The notes under the pieces were generated by a model. That model ran no database searches. It was not told where the DNA came from and saw nothing but the letters and a program-made list of their open reading frames with translations. From sequence record OR352953.1: a stretch of 64,000 nucleotides of DNA; one strand, given 5' to 3'. Made by a program: the position numbers and the translations under genes. The first letter of the stretch is position 1; every line of letters begins with the position of its first letter. Origin of the DNA: Escherichia phage AV123. Shown here in pieces: positions 1,878 to 54,418 of the stretch.

Positions 1878-3614
1878 TTAGTTTACCAGTTTATTTATGT
1901 CTGGTAAAAGATTTATTTCACCTAAAAAATCACCTTCACCTTCCTCTAGCCAACTCTCATATGCTTGTGCATGATTATAGTTACCATCAAAAGAATCTGC
2001 AACAAATTTTTCTACAGTTTTTCGAGATGTGCCAGCGCCAAATACACCAAGTTTAATACCATTGATCGGTAAAGTGGTACTTGTGGGTACTTTCTCTGTT
2101 GCAACACGGTTGATATCTATAATCTCCTGTACGGTTGTGTTCCATTGTAAGCATTTAACACAACGGGTATGCGCTACATACAGTAGGTTTCGCTCTGCCT
2201 CTTCCAGTCCTACCCATTCACCAGTCTTTTTATCATAGTTGGAAGGAAAATCATTAGCAACAATAACCTGATCCCACTCCAAACCTTTAGACTTGTGTGC
2301 TGTAGTCAGTGTGACTTTTGCTGTAGGAGAATTTCTATGCGTTCTAAGTGTATGTGCTATAGTGTTTGCCTTACCAGAAACTACGATGTTTAACAAGCGT
2401 TTAGCATCTGGATCAGCCTCTGCACACTCAACAAATTCATCCCAGTCTGCGTAAGGTAATACAGTTTCATGTTTTACTTTCTCAATATCTCCTCTACGAA
2501 GAGCATTAACACTATCTACCATAGAGATAAAATCCCTGGTATCTACGTTAATAATAATTTCTTCCCCATCTGCAATACGATCCATTGCCTCCATAAGCAA
2601 GGTTAAATTCTTGCGAAAGATGATAGTGTAAGGTTTTGTATAGTCTACAACATCTGATTTGTAGCTACCTACTACAGTATCAAAGCCTTTACCAACCAAA
2701 GGATGACGCAAAGGTTCTTTATCGCTTAAAATCATATTGGCAATGTTTGCCACTTTGGGGCCAAAACGGAAGCAAGCAGTTAATGGAAGCTCTGCCCCAT
2801 ATGTAGAGGTTTCCTTCATCATATTTTGGCTTCCACGGAACTGGTAGATGCTCTGATATTCGTCACCCACCACTACTACTTGTTTTGCAGATTTAGCATT
2901 TCGCAGAATAGACAAGAATGCAGGGTTAACATCCTGGAATTCATCCCCAAAAATAATGTCATAACCAAGATCAGCACCAGACAATTCAAACAATTTTACA
3001 TAGGTGTCATGCGTCATCAAAGTATCTGTATTAGGATCAATGCGCTCTCGCCACAATTGTTTTGCATACTTAACTACTTCTGTAATTAGTTTGTGTTCGT
3101 TAATACCTTTTCTTTTAATATCTGCAAGATGTACACCAGGAAAATGTTTACGGCTGATAAAAGGATCATCCGAAAATTCAAACTTACCTACGGTTTGCTT
3201 GATCATTAAACCAATCATAGCACGAGTTAAAAGTGTTTTCCCTCGCTTATCAATAAGATTATTAATCTTAAATTTCTTTGCTATTTCACTACCTGTACCT
3301 GCAACGTTAACATACTGTCCTTCTGGTCGTGACAGTTTTGCACGTAAACGATGATCCAGGAATTGATAGCAAATAGAATGCAATGTACGGCATTCTACAT
3401 TTAGTGGCATCTTACGTCGTGCTTCTTCTGCCATGCTTTTATTGAAAGCTAAGTAAAGAATGCGATCTTCTGTACTGTTAGCCAGCAAATAAAGTGTTGA
3501 CGTTTTGCCTGATCCAGATTTAGCTTGGATAGTTAAAAAGCGATGGTCTGGAAAAGCCTCCTTAATAGCTGTTTGCTCTTCTGTTGGAGTGAAGCTCAAC
3601 TCTTTCTTAGCCAT
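1878..3614 (-). CDS. UvrD/Rep-like SF1 DNA helicase
   Basis: Walker A AKSGSGKTST, DEFQD, VVVVGDEYQSIYQFRG; start reset to ATG 3612-3614 with GAGAGG RBS. Confidence 0.8.
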   Translation of the reverse strand: MAKKELSFTPTEEQTAIKEAFPDHRFLTIQAKSGSGKTSTLYLLANSTEDRILYLAFNKSMAEEARRKMPLNVECRTLHSICYQFLDHRLRAKLSRPEGQYVNVAGTGSEIAKKFKINNLIDKRGKTLLTRAMIGLMIKQTVGKFEFSDDPFISRKHFPGVHLADIKRKGINEHKLITEVVKYAKQLWRERIDPNTDTLMTHDTYVKLFELSGADLGYDIIFGDEFQDVNPAFLSILRNAKSAKQVVVVGDEYQSIYQFRGSQNMMKETSTYGAELPLTACFRFGPKVANIANMILSDKEPLRHPLVGKGFDTVVGSYKSDVVDYTKPYTIIFRKNLTLLMEAMDRIADGEEIIINVDTRDFISMVDSVNALRRGDIEKVKHETVLPYADWDEFVECAEADPDAKRLLNIVVSGKANTIAHTLRTHRNSPTAKVTLTTAHKSKGLEWDQVIVANDFPSNYDKKTGEWVGLEEAERNLLYVAHTRCVKCLQWNTTVQEIIDINRVATEKVPTSTTLPINGIKLGVFGAGTSRKTVEKFVADSFDGNYNHAQAYESWLEEGEGDFLGEINLLPDINKLVN

Positions 3615-3615
3615 T

Positions 3616-4092
3616 TCAACCTCTCTTAATTTGTTTAACAAGCATAGGAACAAAATCTCGTTTTAAAATTTGTTCAATAATATGATCAGGTAGCTGTTGG
3701 AAATTATAATTAAAAGCTACTGTCTCACCTTTAGGTGTTTCTACCCGCACATATAACATGTTACGAAGTTTATCCACTTGTGCTGTATATTCTAAACCAT
3801 GTAATTGATGCATTGCAAACATCAAATCATCAGTTTCAGTTTGTAATCTATCATTTGCTTGCATCAAGGACAAGGTAAAAGGTAGATTTTCCCTAAGAGC
3901 CACCTTCTTAGGAACTAGTGAAGGAAAATACTCACCAATAACTTCCTGTGTAAGCTGGATACACTCTTTTTCAAGTTGGTTTTGTTCCTTAAGTTCACAA
4001 ACACTTTTTTGTAAAGTGTTAACCTCTTTTTGCAAAGCTGCTAGTTGAGCACTTAACTTTCTTTTTTGATTACGACCAAAACGTTTAGACAT
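3616..4092 (-). CDS. hypothetical protein (coiled-coil N-terminus)
   Basis: 158 aa ORF tightly packed between neighbours. Confidence 0.55.
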   Translation of the reverse strand: MSKRFGRNQKRKLSAQLAALQKEVNTLQKSVCELKEQNQLEKECIQLTQEVIGEYFPSLVPKKVALRENLPFTLSLMQANDRLQTETDDLMFAMHQLHGLEYTAQVDKLRNMLYVRVETPKGETVAFNYNFQQLPDHIIEQILKRDFVPMLVKQIKRG

Positions 4093-11217: not shown

Positions 11218-12345
11218 ATGAAATACACGATTTATGGTGATATTGTAAGTGTAAATAAAGATATGGGCGTGGAATCTAACTATCTTCCACCTGGATTCTA
11301 TACTGTTAGTCGTGATCCCCTTGGCAATTACTTTTTAAGCCGTGGTAATCTAACAGGTGTACCGGATGTTCTGTATGGTGAAACAGAAAAACGAGCAAAT
11401 CACGTTATTCGTACATTCCATCGCCGGAGTGCACAAGGTAAAAATACAGGTTTGCTCCTGACAGGCACTAAGGGCAGTGGTAAAACTATGTTAGCCAAAC
11501 TCATTAGTCGTGACCTTGTAGAAGAAGGTATTCCAACTATTATGGTTACTCAAGCCTACAGCGATGCTAATTTCATTGAACTTATTAGCAAGATCACCGA
11601 CAAAGCAGTGATTATTTTTGACGAGTTTGATAAAGTATATGAGAAGAAACAAGATCAAGAAGCACTTCTCACTTTGTTAGATGGTACTGGCAGTGGTAAT
11701 AAACTGTTTATTCTAACTAAAAACAGTGGCTTTATCTCTGAATTCTTTCTAAATCGTCCTAGTCGTGTGTTTTATAATTTTAATTATGATAAAATCTCAC
11801 TAGAAACTATGATTGACTATTTAGATAAAAACCTGGATAACAAAGCACACTTTGATAATTTCCAAAGGCTTTGGGATGTAAGTTTAGAGTTGTCCTTTGA
11901 TGTGATCCAAGGTATAGTAGAAGAACTTAATTTCTACCCTGATTTATCCTTTAAAGAATGCATCTCTATGATGGGCGTTTCTTTGGGTGGTGGTAATAAG
12001 TGGGATATCAGCAGCGTTGTTATTAATGGGAAACTTCAGAAAGTTAGCTGGGTATCTAGTTGGCATAACTTCACACCTGCAATCTTTTTAGGTGGCTCGT
12101 GCACACTAGACGTGTACTTGTCATCTCCAAGTGATGCAGACTCTAAAGAAGCCCTTGCTAATAGCTCTTACGTGGTTTTTGATGATGAAGGAGATGCTCG
12201 AATTCCATTGAATGCGACAAAAATGAAAGCAGATCTTATTACAGGCGGTAAAATCGTTGTGTTTAGTGATGATCCAGAAGATTCTTTCCGTATTGTTCTG
12301 GAACCAACTATCACCAATGGTGCAACTTTGGCAAGCGTGTTTTAA
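11218..12345 (+). CDS. AAA-type ATPase domain protein
   Basis: Walker A GTKGSGKT, Walker B IIFDEFD; 375 aa. Confidence 0.65.
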   Translation: MKYTIYGDIVSVNKDMGVESNYLPPGFYTVSRDPLGNYFLSRGNLTGVPDVLYGETEKRANHVIRTFHRRSAQGKNTGLLLTGTKGSGKTMLAKLISRDLVEEGIPTIMVTQAYSDANFIELISKITDKAVIIFDEFDKVYEKKQDQEALLTLLDGTGSGNKLFILTKNSGFISEFFLNRPSRVFYNFNYDKISLETMIDYLDKNLDNKAHFDNFQRLWDVSLELSFDVIQGIVEELNFYPDLSFKECISMMGVSLGGGNKWDISSVVINGKLQKVSWVSSWHNFTPAIFLGGSCTLDVYLSSPSDADSKEALANSSYVVFDDEGDARIPLNATKMKADLITGGKIVVFSDDPEDSFRIVLEPTITNGATLASVF

Positions 12346-12419: not shown

Positions 12420-13409
12420 ATGACAGCACCAAAATCATGGGAACAATATAAAGAAGAGTGTATACCAATAGCAGAGAGTAAGCAAATCCAAATCTTAGGA
12501 TGGACGGGACAATGGAAAGGGGTCCACACAAAACTTGATTTGTTGTGCCATTGTGGTTATAAATGGGATACTACAAGTATTAACAGTTTTAAATGTGGTA
12601 GCGGTTGTCCACAATGTAGGAGGAAGAATATAAGGAAGTCACAAACAATGTCCGACGATCAACATATTGCAGATTTCTTTTCTACAGGGGAATTTAAGGA
12701 AGGCACTATCTTCACTAACACAGGAACACGGGGTAAAGGATGTAGGAATATTATCTGGATGGTTGAATGTCCTGTTTGCTCTCATGATGAATATGTTCAA
12801 GCAGGTGTTTGTGATGGTAAATTTTACTCTGAAGGAGATAACCTTAAACGAGGGTATATTCCGTGTCGTTGTGGGAACTATCGGTATACAGAAGACCAGA
12901 TCACCTATAGGGTAAAAAAGGAAGTAGAAGGGAAAGGGTATGTCTGGGTAGATTGGATTACCAAACCCTCTTCTATAGGTAAGTTTAAATATCTTTGTCT
13001 TGTGCATGGTGAGCAGATAGGGAGTGCTAATAATTTATTAAGCCTCGGTCGAGGTTGTCCTATGTGTGCTGGTCATAGTCAGCAGCAGTTATATATTAAT
13101 ATTGTTAAGGATGATAATATTATAGTTGCTCTTAAGTTTGGTATAGCTAAAGATAGTGATAGGCGATTAAACATTCAAAATAGCCGTAATCTGTTTTTTA
13201 TGGAACGTATTTGTTTATATGATTTTAGCACAGTGAAACAGTGTAAGGCTGCTGAAAGAGCTATAAAGAAAAAATTAAAAACTGGTATTTTAACAGCAAG
13301 AGAGTTGAAAGACGGTCATACAGAAACAGTAAGTGTTTCTGATTTGGAAAATCTTCAAAAAATTATTACACAATATGGTGGCAAGTTAGTATACAATAAG
13401 GAGGTGTAA
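12420..13409 (+). CDS. zinc-ribbon repeat protein with C-terminal T5orf172/GIY-YIG-like domain
   Basis: four C..C pairs; C-terminal YINIV..ALKFGIAKDSDRRL fits T5orf172 pattern. Confidence 0.45.
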   Translation: MTAPKSWEQYKEECIPIAESKQIQILGWTGQWKGVHTKLDLLCHCGYKWDTTSINSFKCGSGCPQCRRKNIRKSQTMSDDQHIADFFSTGEFKEGTIFTNTGTRGKGCRNIIWMVECPVCSHDEYVQAGVCDGKFYSEGDNLKRGYIPCRCGNYRYTEDQITYRVKKEVEGKGYVWVDWITKPSSIGKFKYLCLVHGEQIGSANNLLSLGRGCPMCAGHSQQQLYINIVKDDNIIVALKFGIAKDSDRRLNIQNSRNLFFMERICLYDFSTVKQCKAAERAIKKKLKTGILTARELKDGHTETVSVSDLENLQKIITQYGGKLVYNKEV

Positions 13410-17911: not shown

Positions 17912-18151
17912 ATGGCTAAATCTAAAATGTTCTTAGGTCACAAAAACAAAACTCATTGGAATGTAAGCCTTTGGATCAACAACGATGAAGGTTTTTATAA
18001 TCTTGCGCGTGAATTTATCGCAGCTAACACCAATAAGAATGACGCAGCGCGGGATATGATGTTATTTCTTGAAAGTATGGATCAAGATAAAACGCCAGAC
18101 GGATTCAAGTTCAGTAAAACCGCGATCCGTGCCGCTATGGTTGGAATGTAA
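17912..18151 (+). CDS. hypothetical early protein
   Basis: 79 aa. Confidence 0.55.
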   Translation: MAKSKMFLGHKNKTHWNVSLWINNDEGFYNLAREFIAANTNKNDAARDMMLFLESMDQDKTPDGFKFSKTAIRAAMVGM

Positions 18152-18246
18152 AGGAGGTATAAAAATGAAACATCGTTCGACCTATCTCACAAAACGTTTT
18201 AGCTTAGATCATAAGTTAGGCTATTACGGAAGAAATAGAAAATAAT

Positions 18247-18306
18247 TTGACACTGTTTAAAATTCTGGTATAGTTTATCACATAGGGCGGGAAATGGTTT
18301 CCCGCC
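18247..18306 (+). promoter_or_regulatory. promoter plus leader stem-loop cassette 4
   Basis: TTGACA-16-TATAGT then GGCGGGAAATGGTTTCCCGCC. Confidence 0.6.
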
Positions 18307-18328
18307 AAATCAAAGAAAGGTTATCATT

Positions 18329-18556
18329 ATGGCTATCGTTATTGTTCGCGTATCCGGTACGGTTGGAAGCTCCCAGGTAGTAGCAGTTATCACAGAGAAG
18401 AAAGGGGATGATCTTCACTCCTCCTTGAATAGCTGGGCGGTCGCTAACTTTGGGCAATGGTCGAGCGTTGAGTACATCGAATCCTACCAGGTGCCAACGA
18501 TTAGCCTAACCGATCTAAATGTTGATCGCTTGTTGTGCCTGGATCAATTAAACTAA
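18329..18556 (+). CDS. hypothetical early protein
   Basis: 75 aa. Confidence 0.55.
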   Translation: MAIVIVRVSGTVGSSQVVAVITEKKGDDLHSSLNSWAVANFGQWSSVEYIESYQVPTISLTDLNVDRLLCLDQLN

Positions 18557-18564
18557 AAATAATA

Positions 18565-18620
18565 TTGACAAGATAACTAAAATCAGTAAAATGTAATGCA
18601 TAGGGCGGCAATAGTGCCGC
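18565..18620 (+). promoter_or_regulatory. promoter plus leader stem-loop cassette 5
   Basis: TTGACA-16-TAAAAT then GCGGCAATAGTGCCGC. Confidence 0.55.
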
Positions 18621-18643
18621 TCCTAGTGAGAGAGATTATCAAG

Positions 18644-18859
18644 ATGGCTAATATCCGCACACTGTTAAAAAATGCAAGTCAAGTTTTATTTTCAGATGAC
18701 GAGTATTTCAACAAAGACATTACAGGCGTGAAAAATTTAAAAGACGTGAAGGATGTTATCGGTATCCGTGGATCTTTACGTAAAGGTGACATATACGGTA
18801 ACAAGGTGCAATATAAACTGTCAAAAGATTATGATTTTACTTTGACATTTATTTCATAA
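18644..18859 (+). CDS. hypothetical early protein
   Basis: start reset to ATG 18644 downstream of the hairpin. Confidence 0.5.
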   Translation: MANIRTLLKNASQVLFSDDEYFNKDITGVKNLKDVKDVIGIRGSLRKGDIYGNKVQYKLSKDYDFTLTFIS

Positions 18860-38549: not shown

Positions 38550-38588
38550 AAATAAAGCCCCTAGAATCACTTCTAGGGGCTTTTGTTT
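38550..38588. terminator. bidirectional terminator between convergent blocks
   Basis: AGCCCCTAGAATCACTTCTAGGGGCT flanked by A-run and T-run. Confidence 0.6.
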
Positions 38589-38650: not shown

Positions 38651-38908
38651 TTAGGAATGCATAAAATCTTCTTCAGGGCAGGTTGAGAGATAAGAGATGC
38701 ACGTTGGGACAACAACAACATTATCTTTAAGGTTTGCAACCAAGCCTTTTGTAATTCCAGCCACTGCTCCGTTAATATCTGCTTGACGGATACCAAAACC
38801 TTGTTGTGCGGATAGATAACAAAATCCCTCACCTTTCTGTTGATTATTATTGAAGTAATAAACGTAGTGCATCATAAAATGGTCTTTAACGATTTGTTCT
38901 GTGGTCAT
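38651..38908 (-). CDS. hypothetical protein
   Basis: 85 aa; AGGAG RBS. Confidence 0.5.
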   Translation of the reverse strand: MTTEQIVKDHFMMHYVYYFNNNQQKGEGFCYLSAQQGFGIRQADINGAVAGITKGLVANLKDNVVVVPTCISYLSTCPEEDFMHS

Positions 38909-38917
38909 AATATTCTC

Positions 38918-38945
38918 CTATAAGAAAAGGGGCTTTCGCCCCTTG
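38918..38945 (-). terminator. rho-independent terminator (minus strand)
   Basis: GGGGCGAAAGCCCC then T-run on minus strand. Confidence 0.5.
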
Positions 38946-38951
38946 GTCAAG

Positions 38952-39764
38952 TTACTTAGTCAAATGATCTTCTATCATTTTTATGAAAGCAGGATTGCTA
39001 AAAGCATCTGCTGCCTTTTCTCTATAAACAAAGACTCCTCTATCTTCGTAAAGAAGAGTTTCTTCGTAATTAATTCCTGGGTTAACAACAATCATTTTTG
39101 TACCCATAGTAAGTGCAGGGAATAATTCCCAATTAAAATTGATAACTTGGTTTGAACATCCTACTACAACAACCAAATCTTGCATGGTCAAAGTATCAAA
39201 CAAGTGAGCCATATCTGCATACAAAGGTGCAGCCTCACCAAAAAATACAACATTAGGCTTCACCCAGTTATAATCATCTATGTTTATACTATTGTAACCA
39301 ATGTCTACCAGTGTTTTGTAATCTCCAGGATGCATACGGTAAACTACTTCAGGGAGATACCCGTGCACGTGAATAACAGAATCCCTGTCCACACCTGCTC
39401 GCTCTAGTAGATCATCGACGTTTGTTGTCAAGTTTACTACTTGGTTAGGATATTCCTTAAACCACTTTGCTATTTGAATATGTGCAGCATTAGGTTGTAC
39501 ATCTTTAAGCTCAACACGTCTTTTGTTATAAAATTCGTGTGTTTTGGCATATAAGTCCATACCGTTCTCGTCTACACCACCGACCACTGGAAGATCTGGA
39601 GATGTTCTCACACGATAACCTGCTTGGAAAGCTCCAATATCGCAGACCTCTTCTAAGTCATATTCTTCCCATAAGGCACGACCACTATCTGTGTCTGTTC
39701 GGAACGTTCGAATCCCACTGTCTGCACTTAAACCTGCGCCACTAACAAAAATTACTCTTCGCAT
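38952..39764 (-). CDS. Sir2-family NAD-dependent deacylase/ADP-ribosyltransferase-like protein
   Basis: GAGLSADSGIRTFR, TTNVDDL, HVHG, VVVVGCS sirtuin motifs; 270 aa. Confidence 0.7.
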   Translation of the reverse strand: MRRVIFVSGAGLSADSGIRTFRTDTDSGRALWEEYDLEEVCDIGAFQAGYRVRTSPDLPVVGGVDENGMDLYAKTHEFYNKRRVELKDVQPNAAHIQIAKWFKEYPNQVVNLTTNVDDLLERAGVDRDSVIHVHGYLPEVVYRMHPGDYKTLVDIGYNSINIDDYNWVKPNVVFFGEAAPLYADMAHLFDTLTMQDLVVVVGCSNQVINFNWELFPALTMGTKMIVVNPGINYEETLLYEDRGVFVYREKAADAFSNPAFIKMIEDHLTK

Positions 39765-39775
39765 TCAATATCCTC

Positions 39776-40306
39776 TTAGTAATCATCATCCCAAGAAGAT
39801 GCGTCGTAACGCTCTTCCTCTTCGAAATCCCAATTAATTTCTACTCCAAAATCTAAAAACAATTTAACAATGTTTTCTGTAGAGTAGTATTTATCATAAG
39901 CATTAGCTAGTTCCCAATACTTGTCACTCAATTTTTTATATTTAGGATCATTATAGTCATAATCTACTTTATAACCATAATCATACATCTCTTGTTCAGC
40001 TTTAAGCATAGCTTCTGGTGTAAGAAGATTAGGGAACGGACGATTTCTTTCTTTTAACTTAGAAGCAATCCAGTTTGCAACATTCGCCACTTCACCATCT
40101 CGATTATCACCTAAACAACTTGCATAATCTCCATCTTCGTAAGTGCCTAAATCCCCACTAACTTCATGTACAATAGACGAATACGATCCACACGTTTCAC
40201 AATCTGAAAAAGTGTCTACTGTTGTAATATCAATAGATAAAACTGGTAAAGCCATAGCTTCTTTCACACAAGCCTCCTCATATAATAACATGTCATCAAA
40301 ACCCAT
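39776..40306 (-). CDS. acidic hypothetical protein
   Basis: start reset from TTG 40321 to ATG 40304-40306 (GGAGGA RBS). Confidence 0.5.
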   Translation of the reverse strand: MGFDDMLLYEEACVKEAMALPVLSIDITTVDTFSDCETCGSYSSIVHEVSGDLGTYEDGDYASCLGDNRDGEVANVANWIASKLKERNRPFPNLLTPEAMLKAEQEMYDYGYKVDYDYNDPKYKKLSDKYWELANAYDKYYSTENIVKLFLDFGVEINWDFEEEERYDASSWDDDY

Positions 40307-40320
40307 ATATCCTCCAGACA

Positions 40321-40345
40321 AATAAAGCCCCTGCTTGGGGCTTTG
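40321..40345 (-). terminator. rho-independent terminator (minus strand)
   Basis: AGCCCCAAGCAGGGGCT then TTATTT on minus strand. Confidence 0.5.
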
Positions 40346-40360
40346 GTTAAGTTTTACGGA

Positions 40361-40972
40361 TTATACCAGACTTTTAAGGTACTTGTCAAGGGCTTCTTGA
40401 TCACCTTGACAAACATAGCAACGGAAGTCTTGAGCAGAAGGTTCTTTGTCCTCGTCCCAATCCCAATAGACAGTACCTTTATAGCGTGAGCCTGGGAACT
40501 CGAAGTATGCCACATGAGTAATATGGTGTGGGCCACCCCAAAATTCTGTAAAAGTAAATTGAGGATACGCTGCTTTAACTGTATTCTCAAACCAAGTTTT
40601 ACGATCTAATGCTTCGTTTATAAAATAAGCATGGCGTTCCATTTCATCCCAATCTTTCCAAACGCATTTTTCATCCAGAGAAAAAACAAAATCTTCACTG
40701 TTAAAATCGTCTGTATCTGATTCCAAAATATCATAATCATGTGCACTAGGTATCCACCATCCAGCTTCTAATAGTGCTTTTGCAGGTACAAAACCTTTTT
40801 CAGCATATTGATCAAATTCTTTTACTCTACGTACAGTGCAGTATTCATCTTCACCACCAATGTCCAGTAGACAAGCACCTTTGCGTCTTGCTGCAAGACC
40901 ATGTGTATCAAAAACTACAACACTACCTTCACCGTCTTCACGATCTACTTGATATGCAACTTTTTGAGTCAT
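40361..40972 (-). CDS. hypothetical protein
   Basis: 203 aa; GGGGG RBS. Confidence 0.6.
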   Translation of the reverse strand: MTQKVAYQVDREDGEGSVVVFDTHGLAARRKGACLLDIGGEDEYCTVRRVKEFDQYAEKGFVPAKALLEAGWWIPSAHDYDILESDTDDFNSEDFVFSLDEKCVWKDWDEMERHAYFINEALDRKTWFENTVKAAYPQFTFTEFWGGPHHITHVAYFEFPGSRYKGTVYWDWDEDKEPSAQDFRCYVCQGDQEALDKYLKSLV

Positions 40973-40973
40973 A

Positions 40974-41111
40974 TTACCCCCAATGTATATGGGAAATTAA
41001 CCAAAAGATAAATTCCCAAAAACACCAACCAAGAAAAGTTAATGGAATTATAAAGGCTATCAGAGCAGTCTTCCAGCCTTTCCACAATGTTTCCACTATT
41101 CCTCCATACAT
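40974..41111 (-). CDS. small membrane protein (45 aa), tentative
   Basis: hand-translated; overlaps 3' end of methyltransferase gene by 16 nt; weak RBS. Confidence 0.3.
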   Translation of the reverse strand: MYGGIVETLWKGWKTALIAFIIPLTFLGWCFWEFIFWLISHIHWG

Positions 41112-42085
41112 TTAAGAATATGTGCAATGACAGGTATAGTCCAACCGTTACCTAACATCTTATATGCTTGTGTGTTACTACTCACTTTAAAGTAGTCATC
41201 TGGCACACCTTGCAAACGGCAACACTCTTTAACGGTTAACTTTCTATAATGTACGCCTTCACTCAATTTTTCAAAAGCATCTAAATATCTTCCAGGTGGA
41301 ATGTAAGCTAATAGTACGTCTTTCGGCACAGTCGTGAGGCAACGAGTTTTTTCACTGTCCTGAACTTCCAAACAATGTACCAAACGATCAGTTTTAGATG
41401 TACTACGTTTGCCATTTTCATTAATTCTACGCCCATATATTGCTGCTGGATAAAAAACCAGTTGTCTGCGACTCTTTTCAAAATACTGTTCTATATTGCC
41501 ACCTTTGGCATAATTTGCATCTATGCAATAAGCCTTATCTCTGTCTACAATACTATCATCTTCAATGATATCTTGCAATACTTCATTGGTAATCTCCCAG
41601 GGTTTTATTTCCCAGTTGCACCAGTATAAACGTTGTCTATTCTGTGCCGTGAAATCTGCGGAGTTAATGAATACGGGATCAACACCTAAGTAACTTGTGA
41701 TCACGTTTTCCCACTCCACTTTCATCTTAACGTTTTCAAGCATGAACTTAACATTAGGGTTAAACTTTTTAATATGTTCAAGAATTTCAACATATTCGAA
41801 GAATAGCTTAGATCGCGGATCTTGAAAGTTCAAACCCTTACCAGAAGAAGAGAAGCCTTGACACGGACTACCACCTAACAAAAGATCAATTTCTCCCCAC
41901 GGGATATCCCATTCTCTCCATTTTGTAACATCACCTAACTGAATAATATCTGGAAAATTTGCTTGGCTTTCAGCTATGGCAAATTTGTCTAATTCTGAAG
42001 CATAATATGTATCTACTTCAATACCTGCACTTTTTAGCGCAAGCATTCCTCCTGACATACCATCAAAAAGACTTAAAACTTTCAT
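41096..42085 (-). CDS. DNA cytosine-5 methyltransferase
   Basis: motif I LFDGMSGG, motif IV GGSPCQGFS, motif VI ENV; 329 aa. Confidence 0.85.
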   Translation of the reverse strand: MKVLSLFDGMSGGMLALKSAGIEVDTYYASELDKFAIAESQANFPDIIQLGDVTKWREWDIPWGEIDLLLGGSPCQGFSSSGKGLNFQDPRSKLFFEYVEILEHIKKFNPNVKFMLENVKMKVEWENVITSYLGVDPVFINSADFTAQNRQRLYWCNWEIKPWEITNEVLQDIIEDDSIVDRDKAYCIDANYAKGGNIEQYFEKSRRQLVFYPAAIYGRRINENGKRSTSKTDRLVHCLEVQDSEKTRCLTTVPKDVLLAYIPPGRYLDAFEKLSEGVHYRKLTVKECCRLQGVPDDYFKVSSNTQAYKMLGNGWTIPVIAHILKCMEE

Positions 42086-42838: not shown

Positions 42839-43359
42839 ACAACCTCCTCGTAGTTGTTATTGTGTTTTACTGTCTCAACATACAATAAAGATTCCATCTG
42901 TAATACATTACCAGAAATAATAAACCCATAAGCCATTTCAGATGTGTCTATATCATATGCCCCGTCTTCCGGTTTAGCAAAGTGTAAAACTATTTCATCC
43001 GGGTTTTCTTCATCCCATAGTTTAGAAATTTTCCGAACCAGAATGTTAGCTAAAATAGTTGACATTCGGGATAAAGCTGTATCCTCATATCTTTTAAAAC
43101 CTAGCCAATAGAGGTTAAGAATTTCTACTTCTTCTTGTGTTAAGTTTTTGTCTAAAGTAATCAGATCTGTAGAGCACGGCGTTTTTGTTGAACCTACTGT
43201 TACAAAACCTGGAGTGTTATGAAAAACAATCTTAACTTTATCACGTATAAAGTTTAAACCTTGTGCCTCAACTATATATTGTATTGTAGGTACAATATCG
43301 TTTGTTACATCAATAAAACTATCTTTAATGACGCTTATATTATTTCTGGACAAGACCAT
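42835..43359 (-). CDS. hypothetical protein
   Basis: 174 aa; AGAGGAGA RBS. Confidence 0.55.
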   Translation of the reverse strand: MVLSRNNISVIKDSFIDVTNDIVPTIQYIVEAQGLNFIRDKVKIVFHNTPGFVTVGSTKTPCSTDLITLDKNLTQEEVEILNLYWLGFKRYEDTALSRMSTILANILVRKISKLWDEENPDEIVLHFAKPEDGAYDIDTSEMAYGFIISGNVLQMESLLYVETVKHNNNYEEVV

Positions 43360-43918
43360 TCTCCTCTAAAATAGGCTTAATAAACTCGAAAATTTGTTTT
43401 TTACTTTTACCTCTAATATTAAAACAAGGAACATTAAACTTTTTAGCCAACATCCAAGCTGTTCTTGTACCACCTAAAGGATCTCCATTTTTATCTGTAT
43501 TTGCACAAGCTAAAAGAAAACAAGATGGTTTTGGATTCTCAAGATCTCTGCCAAGAACTTGGTGGATATTCCTTTGATGTAATTTTTTAGCACCTTGAGA
43601 TAATCTGTCCCAAGCCGGATGCAATTCTTTTGCATATTGTAAGGTTAAAGCATAGTTTACACTATCTGGTCTGTCAAGAACAATAACCTCTCCCTCTATT
43701 TCATTACCTTTAAACGAGAGCCAAGGGATGTATATTTCTTTCTTTGTATTGTTCCCACTATCATATACCCCGCATTCAAATGCGGAATCTGCACCTTCTG
43801 CTTTACCAGATCGCAAAATGAACCATGTAGATAACCATTTTGCAACAGATACCATAGTATCCCATTCTTCGTCTGTAATATCTCTGCTACCAACACCTGT
43901 GTAGAATAAATCGCTCAT
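43340..43918 (-). CDS. DprA/Smf-like Rossmann-fold (SLOG-type) protein
   Basis: GVGSRD...SGKAEGADSAFECG resembles DprA SGgA.G.D motif; start reset to ATG 43916-43918 (AAGGAG RBS). Confidence 0.4.
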   Translation of the reverse strand: MSDLFYTGVGSRDITDEEWDTMVSVAKWLSTWFILRSGKAEGADSAFECGVYDSGNNTKKEIYIPWLSFKGNEIEGEVIVLDRPDSVNYALTLQYAKELHPAWDRLSQGAKKLHQRNIHQVLGRDLENPKPSCFLLACANTDKNGDPLGGTRTAWMLAKKFNVPCFNIRGKSKKQIFEFIKPILEENGLVQK

Positions 43919-43928
43919 GGTTTTCTCC

Positions 43929-44249
43929 TTAACAAGTAATATTGGGAGTAACAATTGGATTAACAATTGGAGTAATAGGGTACGTAAACCAAGGGCTTCC
44001 AATTTCCCAAGGATTATAAGGTCTACGAGGATCAAATGGGGGAGTTACTTCAGGCTTTTTCCAAATCTCCGCTAGTTGTTTCTTCCATTTATCCCTTGCT
44101 GTCTCATTATCTTCATCCAACTGTTCATCATTATCTTTTATTTCTGGTTTTGGAAATAAAAGCTCTTTGACTAACTCAACATCTTCCGTCTCAATAGTAG
44201 TTTCTTTCGTAAGTTCTCCTACTGTTTCTTTAATTGTGATTTTATACAT
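43929..44249 (-). CDS. hypothetical protein
   Basis: 106 aa; GAGGAGG RBS. Confidence 0.55.
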   Translation of the reverse strand: MYKITIKETVGELTKETTIETEDVELVKELLFPKPEIKDNDEQLDEDNETARDKWKKQLAEIWKKPEVTPPFDPRRPYNPWEIGSPWFTYPITPIVNPIVTPNITC

Positions 44250-46125: not shown

Positions 46126-46788
46126 TTATTTAATATTCAATTTTGCACAAAGACGTTGTACCGCTTTGGCATCGAACAAACTCCCACGAATAGTTCTCTT
46201 TCCTGATTCATTCAGATGCTTTGCAATCGTCATATATGGCGTTTTACAAGCTCTGTATGCAACTAAAGAATCTTTTAAAGAAAGCGCAAACTCTCTTGAG
46301 CGTTTTGCTTCTTCCGTTTTCGTATAATCTGTTCTTTTGTATTTAGGGTTTGCTGCACCAAGAAGCGTTCCCTTCGCTTTTGCTACCTTAAGGCTCTTCT
46401 TAACACGATCAGATATTGCACGAGCCTCTTCTTCTGCCAGAACTGCTAAAATATTTATTATCATATTTTCAGCGGAGGGCATAGTTGCTATTCGTACATT
46501 AATCATCTCTAATAAGGTTGCAACAGAGGCTGTGTTACGTCCAAGACGGTCAACCTTAGCAACAACAAGTGTAGCACCTGTTTCTTTGCAAAGATTAACA
46601 GCTTTTACAAGCTCTCTACGTTGCTTCCAATCGCCTTTACCCGAATAAAACTCTGCAAAGCTACCTACAATAGTATAATTTTCTTGTGAATCCAGGAAGC
46701 GTTGAATATCTGCTTCCTGTGATTCTATACCATACTGGTTGCCTTGTTGTTTCTTCTTAGAAAGTCGATGATATAGTACAAACTTCAT
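46126..46788 (-). CDS. serine recombinase (resolvase/invertase family)
   Basis: N-terminal YHRLSKKKQ catalytic-Ser context, resolvase-like core; GGAGGG RBS; 220 aa. Confidence 0.7.
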   Translation of the reverse strand: MKFVLYHRLSKKKQQGNQYGIESQEADIQRFLDSQENYTIVGSFAEFYSGKGDWKQRRELVKAVNLCKETGATLVVAKVDRLGRNTASVATLLEMINVRIATMPSAENMIINILAVLAEEEARAISDRVKKSLKVAKAKGTLLGAANPKYKRTDYTKTEEAKRSREFALSLKDSLVAYRACKTPYMTIAKHLNESGKRTIRGSLFDAKAVQRLCAKLNIK

Positions 46789-47049: not shown

Positions 47050-47300
47050 TATTCATCCCAATCGCCGTTACGAGCACTTTCAAGAACCTTGACAACTTCT
47101 GCATACTCTACAGCTAAACCAGCACATACTTCAGCTTGTTTTGCAATTGCTTGTTTAAAGAACATAGCGATTGCAACACTCTGTGTTGTGTGAATGTTAT
47201 CTGCTTTAGTTGATACATGAAGATCAAAATCTTCTTCATCAAAGGTGAGTTCCATAGTAACAATAAATTTCTCGGTCATAAAAATGCTCCTCTTAAACAA
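47049..47300 (-). CDS. small acidic protein
   Basis: 83 aa. Confidence 0.45.
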   Translation of the reverse strand: MFKRSIFMTEKFIVTMELTFDEEDFDLHVSTKADNIHTTQSVAIAMFFKQAIAKQAEVCAGLAVEYAEVVKVLESARNGDWDE

Positions 47301-47802
47301 AATAGAAAGGTTGAGTTAAACCCAGCCTGTTTTTTGGGTCGTAGACGTACCAAGCATATGCTGTCTTATCAGTACCACCTGCAACAAAAGATGGTCGTTC
47401 AGAAAGAACAATTAAATTTGTTGGTGGATTCTGTTTATGGAATTCCCTTCGTTTAATAGACTCTAGGAACCCAAGACGCAACAAGTATATGCAAACGTCT
47501 GCTTCTTTTAAGCTCTTTTGCAAGAACTCAAGTGCAAGTTTGAATGGGGGATTTGTGATTATAATATCCGGCTTAGTATGCCATTCGTGGTTAAAATAAT
47601 CTTTCCCTTCTTCTAACTCACAATATTCTGATCCTTCTGGAAAATGTTGATAAATTGCAGCAGCAGCGCCTTTACACGGTTCTGCAAAAATAAAACCTTC
47701 TTCTTTAAGGTTATTAAAATCTATTACACTAAATAATGCATTTATACATTTTTGTGGAGTAGGATAGTAATCAGTTGGTGGACGATCATACTTATTTGCC
47801 AC
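47293..47802 (-). CDS. DNA N6-adenine (or N4-cytosine) methyltransferase
   Basis: DYYPTP near N-terminus and NPPF motif IV; GTG start per track. Confidence 0.6.
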   Translation of the reverse strand: MANKYDRPPTDYYPTPQKCINALFSVIDFNNLKEEGFIFAEPCKGAAAAIYQHFPEGSEYCELEEGKDYFNHEWHTKPDIIITNPPFKLALEFLQKSLKEADVCIYLLRLGFLESIKRREFHKQNPPTNLIVLSERPSFVAGGTDKTAYAWYVYDPKNRLGLTQPFYFV

Positions 47803-48260: not shown

Positions 48261-48914
48261 TTAATTATCAGAGGACACTTTATCAAGTTTTTCAGAGACT
48301 GTCAATACTTTTTCTTGTGATTCTTTCATTTCTGCTAAAATACTTTCAGCTTCATCACTATCAGGATCACCAGTCAACAGCATACTAATTAGTTGCTCCT
48401 TGCTGAAGTTCAGAATATCTTCCGCTGTTAACTCCAGTTGTTCTTCGATCTCTTCGATAAAAGTTTCACCGCCTGAAAAAGCATCTCGCAGTTTTGCAAC
48501 TTCCATCGCTTCTTCTGGGGTTGCCCCAGCGTCTAAAGCTGCTAAAGCAAAATCTGCCCCACTACCAACAGCATAATAATCTTCAGTTAAAGGATATGCT
48601 CGCGTTGGATTGTTACCCTCGTGCATATAAATTTTACCGTCTGGGTGAACAACTAATGCCACAAACTCTTCATCTTCTTTATCAGGATCTGACTGGATCA
48701 CCAAACCTGGGATTGTCTCTTGTGCTGCTTGGCATTGTAAGTTTTGTTCGAACCAAGAAAAGAAAGTCAGGATAGAAGACAGACGTCCTGCACCACCAAC
48801 AAGGTAATCCCCAATTTTACGCACTTTCTTGAAATTTAAAGTGTCTACACGACTACCTACTGTTACTTTACCATCAGATAGAATTTTGTTATGTGTTGCA
48901 ATAATTGTTGTCAT
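48261..48914 (-). CDS. hslV: HslV-like N-terminal-Thr peptidase with acidic C-terminal extension
   Basis: MTTII N-terminus, KKVRKI, LVGGAG, GSGADFALAA align to HslV/ClpQ pattern; about 45 aa acidic tail. Confidence 0.6.
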   Translation of the reverse strand: MTTIIATHNKILSDGKVTVGSRVDTLNFKKVRKIGDYLVGGAGRLSSILTFFSWFEQNLQCQAAQETIPGLVIQSDPDKEDEEFVALVVHPDGKIYMHEGNNPTRAYPLTEDYYAVGSGADFALAALDAGATPEEAMEVAKLRDAFSGGETFIEEIEEQLELTAEDILNFSKEQLISMLLTGDPDSDEAESILAEMKESQEKVLTVSEKLDKVSSDN

Positions 48915-51156: not shown

Positions 51157-51987
51157 TCACTCCTTGTTTAAAAGTATAGTTAAAGTTCTTACAATACCGC
51201 TATCAACACTTCGCGGATTTAAAGTAGGATCTGTTTTTAAATAAGATGTTGCTGGTCTGACTGCTTTGGAATTATAGGTTGAAGCAGATACAGGATTAAC
51301 TGTAACAGACAAATCTACAACAAGAAATATCTTTCGTGCAAAATCATACCAAGAAATATAATCTGCACCTGCATAGTGTACAATTTTACTATTTACACCA
51401 TCTTTTACAAGTTTAAAAATTGTTTCTGCAAGATCAGGTGCATAAGTAGGACATGATAAATGATCACATACTACATTAAATTCTTTTTGACCACCGTTGT
51501 AGCGTTCCAACATAGTTTTCAAAAAGTTATGTCCAAATTCACTATAAACAGAAGCTGTTCTGATAATAAGTGCTGTAGGACAAACTGTTTGTACTAAAGT
51601 TTCACCTAATTGTTTACTGTAACCGTAGGTGTTCAAGGGGTTTGTTTTACTATCTTCTGTGCCAGCAACATGCCCATCAAAAACATAGTCTGTTGAAATA
51701 TGTACAAACTGTATCAGTAAATCATTACATGCTTTGGCAATGTTTGTTGCACCGTATGCATTAACATTTATACAGGTGTTAACATCTTCTTCAGCTTTAT
51801 CTACTGCCGTGTAAGCCGCACAATTCACAACAACATCAGGCACATGCTGTACAAGACTATTCATAACATCTTTAAAGTTGGTAATGTCTACATCACTTGC
51901 TTCAATCAAAATAACATCTTCGGGCGCAACTTTTGCCAAAGACTGTCCTAATTGACCTTTTGAACCAAAGATTAAAAATTTTGTCAA
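51157..51987 (-). CDS. rmlD: dTDP-4-dehydrorhamnose reductase
   Basis: FGSKGQLG Rossmann motif, RmlD-like length; TTG start overlapping rmlC stop. Confidence 0.75.
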   Translation of the reverse strand: MTKFLIFGSKGQLGQSLAKVAPEDVILIEASDVDITNFKDVMNSLVQHVPDVVVNCAAYTAVDKAEEDVNTCINVNAYGATNIAKACNDLLIQFVHISTDYVFDGHVAGTEDSKTNPLNTYGYSKQLGETLVQTVCPTALIIRTASVYSEFGHNFLKTMLERYNGGQKEFNVVCDHLSCPTYAPDLAETIFKLVKDGVNSKIVHYAGADYISWYDFARKIFLVVDLSVTVNPVSASTYNSKAVRPATSYLKTDPTLNPRSVDSGIVRTLTILLNKE

Positions 51988-52538
51988 AATATGATCTCCT
52001 TTAGTGTTTTGGCTTGCTGATCTTTTTGTGACAAGATAGGTTTAAAATTAATATCATTAAAGATTAAATCAAAACCCCAATCAATATTGATATCTGGATC
52101 ATTCCACGCAAGACTACACTCTGAAGTCGGATCGTAATACTCTGTACATTTATATTCAAAATCAGCAATGTCACTAATCACAACAAAGCCATGAGCGAAA
52201 CCAGGAGGAATCCAAAATTGTGTTTTATTCTTTTCAGATAAGAGAACACCTACCCATTCTCCAAATGTTGGACTACCAACCCTAATATCTACAGCAACAT
52301 CATAAACTTCACCACGAACACAACGTACTAACTTCCCTTGTGGGTTTTTCTTTTGAAAATGAAGCCCACGTAGAACTCCTCGAATAGAACGTGAATGGTT
52401 GTCTTGGACAAAGTTTTGTTTACCTATGTATTGATCATATAAAGCCTGATTAAAACTTTCTAAGAAAAAACCACGTTCATCTCCGTAAACGTCAGGTTGA
52501 ATGATCAACAAATCTTCGATTTTTGTTGCTTGAATCAT
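51984..52538 (-). CDS. rmlC: dTDP-4-dehydrorhamnose 3,5-epimerase
   Basis: GDERGFF..F and RGLHFQ cupin motifs; 184 aa. Confidence 0.8.
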   Translation of the reverse strand: MIQATKIEDLLIIQPDVYGDERGFFLESFNQALYDQYIGKQNFVQDNHSRSIRGVLRGLHFQKKNPQGKLVRCVRGEVYDVAVDIRVGSPTFGEWVGVLLSEKNKTQFWIPPGFAHGFVVISDIADFEYKCTEYYDPTSECSLAWNDPDINIDWGFDLIFNDINFKPILSQKDQQAKTLKEIIF

Positions 52539-52550
52539 TTAATTCCCCCT

Positions 52551-53420
52551 TTATTTTAATTTAAGTAAATACTTACCGTAGTCTGTTTTACTTAAAACCT
52601 CTCCAGAACTTTTTACAGAGTCTAAAGTAATCCATTCATTTTTAAAAGCAATCTCTTCCAGGCATGCAACCTTCATACCTTGTTGCTTTTCTATTGCATG
52701 AACAAATTGAGATGCTTCCATAAGACTTTCATGTGTTCCTGTATCCAGCCAAGTGAAACCTCTTCCTAGTTTACAGACACGTAAAGCCTTTTCTTTCCAG
52801 TACATATCATTTATATCTGTAATCTCTAACTCCCCTCTAGCAGAAGGTTTAACGCTTTTAGCTTTCTGTATAACAGAATTATCGTAAAAGTACAAGCCTG
52901 TGATTGCATAGTTGCTTTTTGGTGCTTTTGGTTTTTCTTCAATACTCACCACTGTACCTTCAGAATCAAACTCAACAACACCAAATCTTTCAGGATCATT
53001 TACGTGATACCCAAAAATATTAGCTCCACCATTCTTCTCAATATGTTCTTTAGCAGAATCTAAAATGCTACCAAAACTCTGACCAAAGAATAAATTATCA
53101 CCTAGCACAAGTGCTACAGAATCTTCACCAATAAAGTTCTCACCAATAATAAACGCTTCTGCTAAACCTCTTGGGCTATCCTGTATTGCATACTGTAGGG
53201 AAATACCAAAAGAGGAACCATCACCTAGAAGATTTACAAAATTAATTTGATCTTCTGGTGTTGTAATTATTAGTATTTCCCTAATTCCAGAAAGCATTAG
53301 GACAGAGAGTGGATAATAAATCATAGGCTTATCATAAATTGGTAATAGTTGTTTACTAACCCCTTTAGTAACTGGGTAAAGTCTTGTTCCACTACCACCT
53401 GCTAAGATAATACCTTTCAT
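52551..53420 (-). CDS. rmlA: glucose-1-phosphate thymidylyltransferase
   Basis: [19 protein letters not shown]-terminus; 289 aa. Confidence 0.85.
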
Positions 53421-53428
53421 ACTCCTCC

Positions 53429-54418
53429 TTAAACTTTATTTTCCCACCACTCTTTGTTATCTACATACCAATCAATGGTTGAATAAAGTTTTTCTTCAAA
53501 TGTGCCTTTAGCTTTCCACCCTAATTCCTTTTCAATCTTATAAGGATTCACTTCATATCTTAGATCATGTCCAGGTCTATCTGTAACCATCTCAATTAGG
53601 CTACAAGCATCTGTTTCAGATGGATACACCGCATCCATATAATCACAAATCATATAGATTACATCAATATTAGTTCTAGGGTTTCTGCTCCCAATATTAT
53701 ATGTTTCTCCAGATTTGCCTTTAGTTACTACTAGGTGTAATGCTTCTGCGTGATCGTCAACGTATAACCAGTCTCTTACTTGAAGACCATTGCCATAAAC
53801 AGGGATTGGTTTATTCATCAAGATATTTGTTATCGTTTTAGGTATTAGTTTTTCTGGATGATGATATGCTCCAAAATTATTTGAACAATTTGTTATAACT
53901 GTCGGAATACCATAAGTACGATGCCACGCTCTTACCAAATGATCGCTTGCTGCCTTAGATGCAGCATATGGACTACTTGGCTTATAAGGATTCTGTTCTG
54001 TAAACGGATAATCCCCTTCTTCCATATCACCATATACTTCATCTGTTGAAATATGATGGAACATTTTAAGATTTGATTTATCTCCCATTAAACGAACAGC
54101 TTCTAGGAGATTAAATGTCCCAACAATATTTGAATTTATAAAAACACTCGGTGATGCTATTGAATTATCTACGTGACTTTCTGCTGCAAGATGCATTATA
54201 TAATCTGGATTAACATCTGCCACAATCTTAGCAGTTAACTGCGCATTTGTCAAGTCAACACGACAAAACTTTACATTGGGTGTTTCTGATAAATTTCTAG
54301 GGTCTGAAGCGTAACCCCATTTATCTATAACGTAAATATCATTTTTAGTATTTTTAGCCAGGAAACGAACTACCGCACTTCCAATAAAGCCTAAACCACC
54401 TGTTACTAAGTATTTCAT
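53429..54418 (-). CDS. rmlB: dTDP-glucose 4,6-dehydratase
   Basis: TGGLGFIGS Rossmann motif, YAASKAASD catalytic YxxxK; 329 aa. Confidence 0.85.

Follow-up and report, generated by a model that had tools for sequence, protein, structure and literature searches.

The stretch of DNA analysed here (the window) comprises 64,000 nucleotides of Escherichia phage AV123 (OR352953.1) and carries on its minus strand, at 38952..39764, a sirtuin gene encoding a 270-residue protein of the Phi92_gp038 family. The open reading frame (ORF) begins with ATG, with a ribosome-binding site GAGGA 8-12 nt 5′ of the start, and its product matches the Pfam family PF02146 (SIR2) with E=1.3e-22 (81 bits against a gathering cutoff of 24) and PHROG 2162, labelled 'Sir2 (NAD-dependent deacetylase)', with E=2e-105. 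In profile matching against the PDB the closest solved relative was E. coli CobB (E=1.3e-18), followed by Sir2Af1/2, Sir2Tm and SIRT5. With a match far beyond chance, the product is confirmed as a Sir2-family protein, as a first-pass annotation of the locus had claimed. That annotation had also pointed to sirtuin motifs and a catalytic His within HVHG, and both are present, with GAGLSADSGIRTFR spanning residues 9-22 and HVHG residues 132-135, in which H134 lines up with the His that is catalytic in CobB from E. coli.

Window DNA is 97–99% identical to that of the phi92-like E. coli myoviruses arall, inny, EmilieFrey, Paula and phi92, and the source phage is of the Justusliebigvirus type (Stephanstirmvirinae). 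In the GenBank records of these relatives Phi92_gp038 is labelled variously as a putative Sir2-like transferase, a sirtuin family protein or a NAD-dependent deacetylase, and Escherichia phage Nernie encodes a sirtuin that is 100% identical. The sirtuins of rV5, T5-like, Klebsiella and Salmonella phages share 47–76% identity with that of the window, and those of rV5-, Mydo- and T5-like phages form with it a single BLAST cluster and a single PHROG. Of 50,697 phage records, 974 encode a sirtuin homologue (E<=1e-10), with Escherichia (373), Salmonella (289), Klebsiella (131) and Vibrio (50) the leading hosts among others, and the carriers span phi92-, Phapecocta-, rV5-, Mydo- and T5-like phages together with some jumbo phages. 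The sirtuin at 17981-18787 of OR062526.1 (vB_EcoM_10C3_SA_NWU, 152 kb, of Phapecoctavirus size) is 96.7% identical to that of the window, unlike the sirtuins of other relatives of about 150 kb, which are just 63–69% identical, and this suggests that the sirtuin unit was exchanged recently between genera. Four GenBank records labelled 'Campylobacter phage' (MG065635, MG065644, MG065650 and MG065682) hold sirtuin and Rnl1 sequences of the rV5/phi92-like coliphage kind, so that their host labels look doubtful.

Conservation was computed over 53 homologues with 55–100% identity. Invariant in all of them are G9-A-G-x-S13, S16, F21-R22, Y79, R82-R83, N115 and D117, as are H134-G135, F174-F175-x-E177, G202-x-S204 and N228, such that the NAD-binding and catalytic set (GAGxS, FR, (T/Q)xNxD, His-Gly, FGE, GxS, N) is complete. 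The Y-x-x-R pair of class III sirtuins is also present, with Y79 and R82 invariant in the clade and aligned with FYNARR of CobB. Invariant in the clade, too, are F21, V116, H134, F175 and V207, which in canonical sirtuins line the tunnel for acyl-lysine; F21, F175 and V207 are among those shared with CobB. An AlphaFold2 (AF2) model built with the 53 homologues as input reached a pLDDT of 91.2 and a pTM of 0.88, and superimposed on CobB (1s5p) with a target-normalised TM score of 0.86, Sir2Af1 and SIRT5 coming next; Foldseek matches to CobB, Sir2Af1 and SIRT5 had E=1e-13 to 1e-17. The two-domain Rossmann fold of sirtuins is thus seen in the AF2 model and the Foldseek matches, alongside the Pfam assignment. 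Pairwise nonsynonymous divergence (dN) among sirtuin relatives was 0.2–0.37 with synonymous divergence (dS) saturated, giving a dN/dS of at most about 0.1–0.2 and pointing to strong purifying selection on the gene. Taken together these data indicate an intact, selected and NAD-binding protein, predicted to be catalytically competent, of a phage-specific, zinc-less branch apparently derived from class III (CobB/SIRT5-type) sirtuins.

The protein is also strongly acidic, with an isoelectric point (pI) of 4.8 and a net charge of -15, in line with the clade (median pI 4.97, net charge -13) and with CobB (pI 5.4). Since six of the eight conserved basic positions (R3, R22, R82, R83, R122 and K169) are common to CobB, no new clade-specific basic patch for RNA is evident.

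In phi92-type phages the sirtuin lies in a self-contained unit running from promoter through gp039 and the sirtuin to a terminator. The promoter (40360..40389, minus strand) is a perfect 12/12 sigma-70 consensus, TTGACA-18 nt (with TG)-TATAAT, and shares bases with the gp041 stop codon. At 11/12 it recurs upstream of the unit in the related loci L005, L007, L061 and L043, and in L061, which is without gp039, it stands 82 nt 5′ of the sirtuin start. The unit ends directly after the sirtuin stop codon with a terminator-like GC hairpin (38927..38944, minus strand; AAGGGGC-GAAA-GCCCCTT followed by a TTCTTAT tail), which bears out the earlier claim that the gene has its own terminator. The record of phage Paula lists this hairpin as a terminator, and relatives whose proteins are about 70% identical keep it, the stem in L048 showing compensatory changes. 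Terminator-like sites numbered 8 against 2.4 +/- 1.4 expected. Neither promoter nor terminator of this unit was found in rV5-like or T5-like loci. Given such a self-contained sigma-70 unit, early transcription by the host polymerase is predicted.

Within the unit, gp039 (39776..40306, minus strand; 176-181 aa, PHROG 9509) lies 11 nt upstream of the sirtuin start; it is acidic, with an acidic tail and an invariant CxxC...C, and is present in part of the subfamily. The BASEL label of gp039 as an aminoacyl-tRNA synthetase is unsupported, since Pfam offers a single match (PhetRS_B1, E=0.03) and profile matching against the PDB returned nothing, leaving gp039 with neither a Pfam nor a PDB relative. 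In the window gp039 stops (TAA, 39776-39790, minus strand) eight codons before its counterpart in close relatives such as P0300, where the frame runs on (...DYEEDIECEE) and overlaps the start codon of the sirtuin, which suggests that gp039 and the sirtuin are translationally coupled in relatives and that the coupling has been lost or altered in this isolate. A GC hairpin between promoter and gp039 (40324..40344) either terminates the Dcm-gp041 unit that lies upstream or forms a stem-loop in the 5′ leader.

Outside the promoter, gp041 (40361..40972, minus strand; 203 aa, PHROG 8514) is always directly upstream of the unit in the subfamily, and its C-terminal half yields only a generic cystatin/NTF2-like fold. 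A Dcm-like C5 cytosine methyltransferase (PF00145, E=1e-43; 41096-42085, minus strand) is encoded two genes upstream of the unit. Downstream, gp037 (38651..38908, minus strand; 85 aa, PHROG 15991) is a conserved neighbour and the last gene of the minus-strand block. The sirtuin had been placed at the start of this block, which holds in coordinates, where it stands near the low-coordinate edge, but not transcriptionally, where it is the penultimate gene with gp037 following. In five phi92/Phapecocta-type lineages the sirtuin is flanked always by gp041, variably by gp039 or a substitute of about 90 aa, and by gp037; all three proteins belong to PHROGs of unknown function. A strong bidirectional terminator with a 13-bp stem (38554..38583) separates the convergent minus- and plus-strand blocks. 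The plus-strand block that converges there (about 17900-38475) holds some 60-70 very small ORFs, nearly all of them 'hypothetical' in EmilieFrey.

The surroundings of the gene elsewhere were compared in 52 IMG/VR loci with sirtuin relatives, in which ORFs were called and 1399 products clustered; at a sirtuin identity of 80% the loci fell into 19 lineages. Eight rV5/Mydo-like lineages share the gene order metallophosphoesterase, T4-Rnl1-type RNA ligase, AAA_33 (polynucleotide kinase (PNK)-like) kinase, SIR2 and ATP-dependent ligase, then two unknowns and a MazG-like protein, with phosphoribosyl pyrophosphate (PRPP) synthetase and a phosphoribosyltransferase of about 590 aa some 5 kb upstream. 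T5-like lineages have PhoH, NrdD, small ORFs, SIR2, HAD_SAK_2, DUF7415 and a helicase, and in T5 the HAD_SAK_2 'Swiss-army-knife RNA repair' phosphatase (168 aa, E=4e-20) lies 330 bp downstream of the sirtuin. One jumbo phage carries Rnl1 1.2 kb upstream of the sirtuin, while in a second a nucleoside-deoxyribosyltransferase-like gene adjoins it and RlaP is 2.3 kb away. A T4-like metagenomic contig has a tight RlaP-SIR2-NADAR array, and in more distant metagenomic contigs SIR2 overlaps a PTH2 peptidyl-tRNA hydrolase gene by 4 bp or, elsewhere, a NadR-like NMNAT/kinase gene by 8 bp; several contexts of further metagenomic relatives are uninformative or probably cellular, a number of outgroup contigs being too short to tell.

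The majority of viral sirtuins were assigned to a clade of their own that is associated with RNA-repair genes and typified by rV5, Mydo, the T5-like SP15 and phage BF of Serratia, and it was proposed that the sirtuin removes 2′-phosphates from RNA in the manner of KptA/Tpt1 (Iyer, Burroughs, Anantharaman and Aravind, 2022; PMC9503650). The window sirtuin belongs to this clade (47–60% identity to rV5-, Mydovirus- and T5-like proteins) and the association of sirtuin and RNA-repair genes was reproduced independently here. Some of the families concerned (HAD_SAK_2 and RlaP) owe the name 'RNA repair' to context alone, and genes of nucleotide metabolism cluster in large phages anyway.

There may be a second co-association, as a 'DprA-like' Rossmannoid protein (PHROG 768) is encoded within 4-7 kb of the sirtuin in phi92-type and T5-type phages and nucleoside-2-deoxyribosyltransferase-like genes flank the sirtuins of jumbo phages. 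Neighbours of these DprA-like or deoxyribosyltransferase-like kinds lie at 43340-44035 (minus strand) in the window and at L016 15323-15892, L021 15851-16444, L052 8713-9195 and L053 11814-12236.

The conserved RNA-repair neighbourhood (ligase, kinase, phosphoesterase, HAD, 2H) seen in rV5-like, T5 and jumbo relatives is absent from the window, in whose 64 kb there are neither homologues of Rnl1, the kinase, MazG, the 191-aa phosphoesterase or the ATP-ligase nor any tRNA gene. In a genome of the same type (Justusliebigvirus alia, OZ035770) the full cassette lies about 30 kb from the sirtuin, just past the right end of the window. This rV5-type region (L057 32339-48582, equivalent to about 130.3-146.6 kb of OZ035770.1) encodes metallophosphoesterase, Rnl1, PNK-like kinase, ATP-ligase, a MazG-like protein and c34, the first three with 74%, 78% and 75% identity and the ligase within the same 74–78% range, and has three small ORFs in the slot held by the sirtuin in rV5-like phages. 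Past it lie PRPP synthetase, a NAPRTase-family phosphoribosyltransferase and 15 tRNA genes. The cassette is thus kept whole without the sirtuin, and the sirtuin persists as a unit of its own. Hidden homology between the subfamily's uncharacterised neighbours and the rV5-type RNA-repair genes was unsupported, since local hhalign comparison of 612 profile pairs (gp037, gp039, gp041, c41, c35 and others) gave nothing at or above 40% probability, the shallow profiles limiting sensitivity.

The tests that DISCRIMINATE the two main ideas on the protein, deacylase and RNA repair, were phyletic, electrostatic and concerned with the tunnel residues. For the first of these, a query with rV5-type Rnl1 retrieved 730 phage records, including those from Escherichia (205), Pseudomonas (177), Streptomyces (95), Vibrio (84), Klebsiella (36) and Salmonella (14). 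Pseudomonas and Streptomyces are not among the top ten hosts for the sirtuin, and sirtuin records outnumber those of Rnl1 by 289 to 14 in Salmonella and by 131 to 36 in Klebsiella. With host counts diverging in this way, most T5-like sirtuin carriers are without Rnl1 and most Rnl1 carriers without the sirtuin. The phyletic pattern, the acidity and the tunnel residues favour a protein or peptide substrate and the neighbourhoods favour a role in RNA or ADP-ribose chemistry, with neither line decisive.

Our tentative preference is for a CobB-like lysine deacylase with an altered range of targets, possibly accepting anionic acyl groups by means of Y79 and R82. We infer that NAD+ is cleaved to nicotinamide and ADP-ribose transferred to an oxygen nucleophile with the assistance of H134. 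In such an enzyme NAD+ would be bound by the Rossmann domain and the acyl-lysine would enter the hydrophobic tunnel formed by F21, V116, H134, F175 and V207, whereupon the acyl carbonyl oxygen would attack C1″ of the ribose with release of nicotinamide and H134 would activate the 2″-OH to yield free lysine and O-acyl-ADP-ribose. The Y79-x-x-R82 pair would allow negatively charged acyl groups of the succinyl or malonyl type to be accepted besides acetyl. Early in infection the enzyme might strip acyl marks from host or phage proteins, tuning metabolism, translation or nucleic-acid enzymes, and the NAD+ consumed could be replenished by the NAPRTase-family phosphoribosyltransferase and PRPP synthetase of the phage. 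The remodelled small domain and substrate groove described below imply a set of targets differing from that of host CobB.

Deacylation is favoured firstly because the nearest solved relatives by sequence and fold (CobB, Sir2Af1 and SIRT5) are lysine deacylases, and secondly because the catalytic and YxxR residues are conserved, selection on the protein is purifying and its surface is acidic and CobB-like. The autonomous early unit, the completeness of the cassette elsewhere and the barely overlapping distributions of sirtuin and Rnl1 argue in the same direction, as does the presence in the same genome of genes for a NAPRTase-family phosphoribosyltransferase and PRPP synthetase.

A number of observations weigh against a deacylase, several of them read from the alignment with CobB and jumbo-phage relatives. 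The structural zinc site is missing, with no conserved Cys in residues 135-170 and all zinc cysteines lost, while the cysteine pairs (of CxxC...CxxC type) are kept in CobB and in the jumbo-phage relatives L052 and L053, and P0161 likewise keeps them. In the T5/rV5/phi92 clade the cofactor loop has a conserved extension of four residues (F-R-T-D-T-x-S-G-x-A-L-W; TDTxSG), this loop being the sole low-confidence part of the AF2 model, and the groove motif GTSxxVxP is replaced, the clade having GCSNQVINFNWELFP where CobB has GTSGHVYPAAGF. Together these three changes make for a peptide-binding surface that is not canonical. The small helical domain has in addition an extra insert of about 21 residues in the phi92/Phapecocta subfamily and in L046/47, because of which distant sirtuins align in two stretches. 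From the invariant set and these derived features it would seem that the NAD chemistry is conserved and the substrate-facing small domain and groove are remodelled. The protein falls below the NCBIfam cutoffs for CobB (NF040867, 86 against 320 bits; NF001753, 106 against 243 bits). In roughly six of nine informative independent phage contexts the sirtuin lies within 2.5 kb of a gene for RNA or tRNA processing (Rnl1, RlaP, HAD_SAK_2 or PTH2), and no acyl-transfer gene adjoins it in any of these approximately nine contexts. Literature searches for an experimental characterisation of any phage sirtuin found none. Finally, Koyuncu et al. (2014) present sirtuins as antiviral factors, and in that light a phage copy with the same activity is less obvious.

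A close rival, doubtful but possible, is RNA repair of the Tpt1/KptA kind, in which ADP-ribose from NAD+ would be transferred to the 2′-phosphate or another terminal phosphate of cleaved tRNA or mRNA, and the sirtuin, jointly with the phage kinase, phosphoesterase and Rnl1 ligase, would undo the damage of anticodon-nuclease-type defences. The published prediction concerns precisely this clade, typified by rV5, Mydo and the T5-like SP15 (PMC9503650), and the linkage to RNA genes was found again in the eight rV5/Mydo-like lineages, T5, jumbo phages and the RlaP-SIR2-NADAR and PTH2 contigs. The genome type of this phage has the full cassette and 15 tRNA genes, the two-step chemistry of Tpt1 is comparable to that of sirtuins, and YxxR offers a possible binding site for an anion. 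Against this, the linkage is absent in this lineage, where the cassette stands complete about 30 kb off with three small ORFs in place of the sirtuin, and most sirtuin carriers, the T5-like phages, are without an Rnl1-type ligase just as most Rnl1 carriers are without the sirtuin. The protein is very acidic without a clade-specific conserved basic patch, the hydrophobic residues of the acyl-lysine tunnel are retained, and HAD_SAK_2 and RlaP are called RNA-repair proteins from context alone. A kinase, a metallophosphoesterase and a ligase can moreover in principle heal and seal ends without a 2′-phosphotransferase, as in PNKP-type systems, and we know of no sirtuin that has been shown to act on RNA.

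Taken further, the same analogy would make the zinc-less phage clade the first sirtuin to act on nucleic acid, converging functionally on Tpt1/KptA, which is conceivable though rather unlikely. By NAD+-dependent chemistry it might, with similarly modest likelihood, remove or ADP-ribosylate terminal or 2′-phosphates, or remove N-acyl groups from aminoacyl-tRNA. Phages would then be reversing immune damage directed at tRNA or mRNA, and in the phi92 type the sirtuin would have become an independently transcribed early gene, a scenario that we consider possible but would not expect.

An ADP-ribosyltransferase, or an enzyme acting on a small molecule derived from NAD or ADP-ribose, is unlikely. The former would act on a host protein, for instance RNA polymerase or a translation factor, in the way of Alt and Mod of T4, and the latter would make or destroy a NAD-derived metabolite or immune signal. 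Some sirtuins do have ADP-ribosyltransferase activity (PMC8120803), the neighbours in relatives include NADAR, nucleoside-2-deoxyribosyltransferase-like, MazG and NadR-like NMNAT/kinase genes, early sigma-70 expression fits a factor for host takeover, and the conserved insertion in the cofactor loop is unexplained. The robust ADP-ribosyltransferases (SirTM), however, have Gln for His and are linked to macrodomains, whereas the His of the phage protein is the same in every homologue and no macrodomain gene turned up in its neighbourhood, and a small-molecule substrate has no direct evidence in its favour. Deacylase and ADP-ribosyltransferase were both among the options of the first-pass annotation and both stay live; its interpretation as a whole is partly supported.

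A plain NADase, or a catalytically silent decoy or sponge against host Sir2-based defence, is very improbable. In its favour, phages and bacteria are known to contend over NAD+, genes for NAD salvage are present in the phage and the sirtuin fold can hydrolyse NAD+. Against it, the protein is not of the defence SIR2 type, a phage that depleted NAD+ early would impair those of its own functions that depend on NAD, and the neighbourhood has no gene for a sensor, an activator or a defence partner. The decoy once suggested for this gene, like a relic, is made very unlikely by catalytic and NAD residues that are invariant in the 53 homologues under purifying selection.

The gene itself is a routine and long-annotated feature of the phi92-type phage group, and gene, family, loss of the zinc site and RNA-repair neighbourhoods are all already in databases and the literature. 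What is added here is that in Stephanstirmvirinae the sirtuin is uncoupled from a cassette that is intact in other respects and forms an autonomous promoter-to-terminator unit, together with the phyletic mismatch between sirtuin and Rnl1 and the acidic, CobB-like surface of the protein. NAD+ is central to the conflict between bacteria and phages, and a strictly conserved, predicted NAD-consuming sirtuin is found in about 2% of phage records, among them those of the model phages T5, rV5 and phi92 and of numerous candidates for therapy. The two published ideas, protein deacetylase and Tpt1-like RNA repair, are incompatible, and the question is easily testable: a deacylase would add a phage-driven layer of protein deacylation to host takeover, and an RNA substrate would be new nucleic-acid chemistry for sirtuins.

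Elsewhere in the window a complete dTDP-L-rhamnose pathway (51157-54418, minus strand; Pfam E=1e-72 to 1e-82) is encoded by this virulent coliphage, made up of RmlD (51157-51987), RmlC (51984-52538), RmlA (52551-53420) and RmlB (53429-54418); it may serve to glycosylate the virion, the DNA or the host surface. This virulent myovirus also encodes a serine recombinase of the Resolvase family (PF00239, E=8e-22; 46126-46788, minus strand), which may be an invertase or may resolve replication products. The ORF at 47293-47802 (minus strand) is an N6-adenine methyltransferase according to other annotations and had no Pfam match here, and a weak proteasome-subunit-like protein (25 bits) lies at 48261-48914 (minus strand). 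Towards the other end are a UvrD-like helicase (1878-3653, minus strand), an AAA/STAND-like ATPase (11218-12345, plus strand) and a protein with CapR and T5orf172 domains (12420-13409, plus strand).

Among known systems, the phage sirtuin differs from the SIR2 NADases of bacterial defence (ThsA, DSR1/2, SIR2-HerA and SPARSA), with which it shares a broad superfamily and NAD+ as substrate. These are of another Pfam family, whereas the phage protein is a single domain of 270 aa without partner or sensor, from a virulent phage. In the Pfam scan PF02146 was the only match to the protein, with none of the PF13289 type, PADLOC gave nothing significant (best 13.8 bits, E=0.007, to an unrelated candidate), and no HerA, TIR/SLOG or pAgo partner was seen among the neighbours examined. 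A defence-type identity is ruled out on these grounds, and the analogy with NAD-depleting defence Sir2 proteins that the first-pass annotation had drawn fails, the protein being of the canonical family and nearest to CobB and SIRT5.

SirTM offers the precedent of a microbial sirtuin with a role other than deacetylation, that role being SirTM's own; it has Gln for the catalytic His and is encoded in an operon with a macrodomain protein, GcvH-L and LplA2 (PMC8120803). Identity with SirTM is ruled out by the invariant H134 and by the lack of a macrodomain among the neighbours examined. Tpt1/KptA is comparable in using NAD+ as a donor of ADP-ribose, by two chemical steps that might in principle be imitated by a sirtuin, and in that the phage clade often adjoins RNA ligase and end-healing genes. 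Its fold is unrelated, however, and the analogy is purely predicted, with no association in the window and mismatched phyletic patterns.

The likeness to CobB (PDB 1S5P, 6RXJ) and human SIRT5, both class III lysine deacylases/desuccinylases, extends to GAGxSxxSGIxTFR, YxxR, TxNxD, HG, FGE and the acidic surface. The protein differs from CobB in having VINFNW where CobB has VYP, in the absence of the zinc cysteines and in the loop and small-domain inserts, and with 26–32% identity to E. coli CobB a recent capture of host cobB is ruled out. In a Vibrio phage Sir2/CobB that was modelled earlier the zinc site was also missing, and deacetylation of host Acs was proposed (Skliros et al., 2016; PMC5107563). 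Closest of all are the Phi92_gp038/PHROG 2162 proteins of phi92-, rV5-, Mydo- and T5-like phages, which represent the same gene with no difference at the protein level. The difference lies in the setting, as in rV5-like phages the gene stands inside the RNA-repair cassette, whereas in the phi92 subfamily it and gp039 make up an autonomous unit from promoter to terminator, with gp041 on one side and gp037 on the other.

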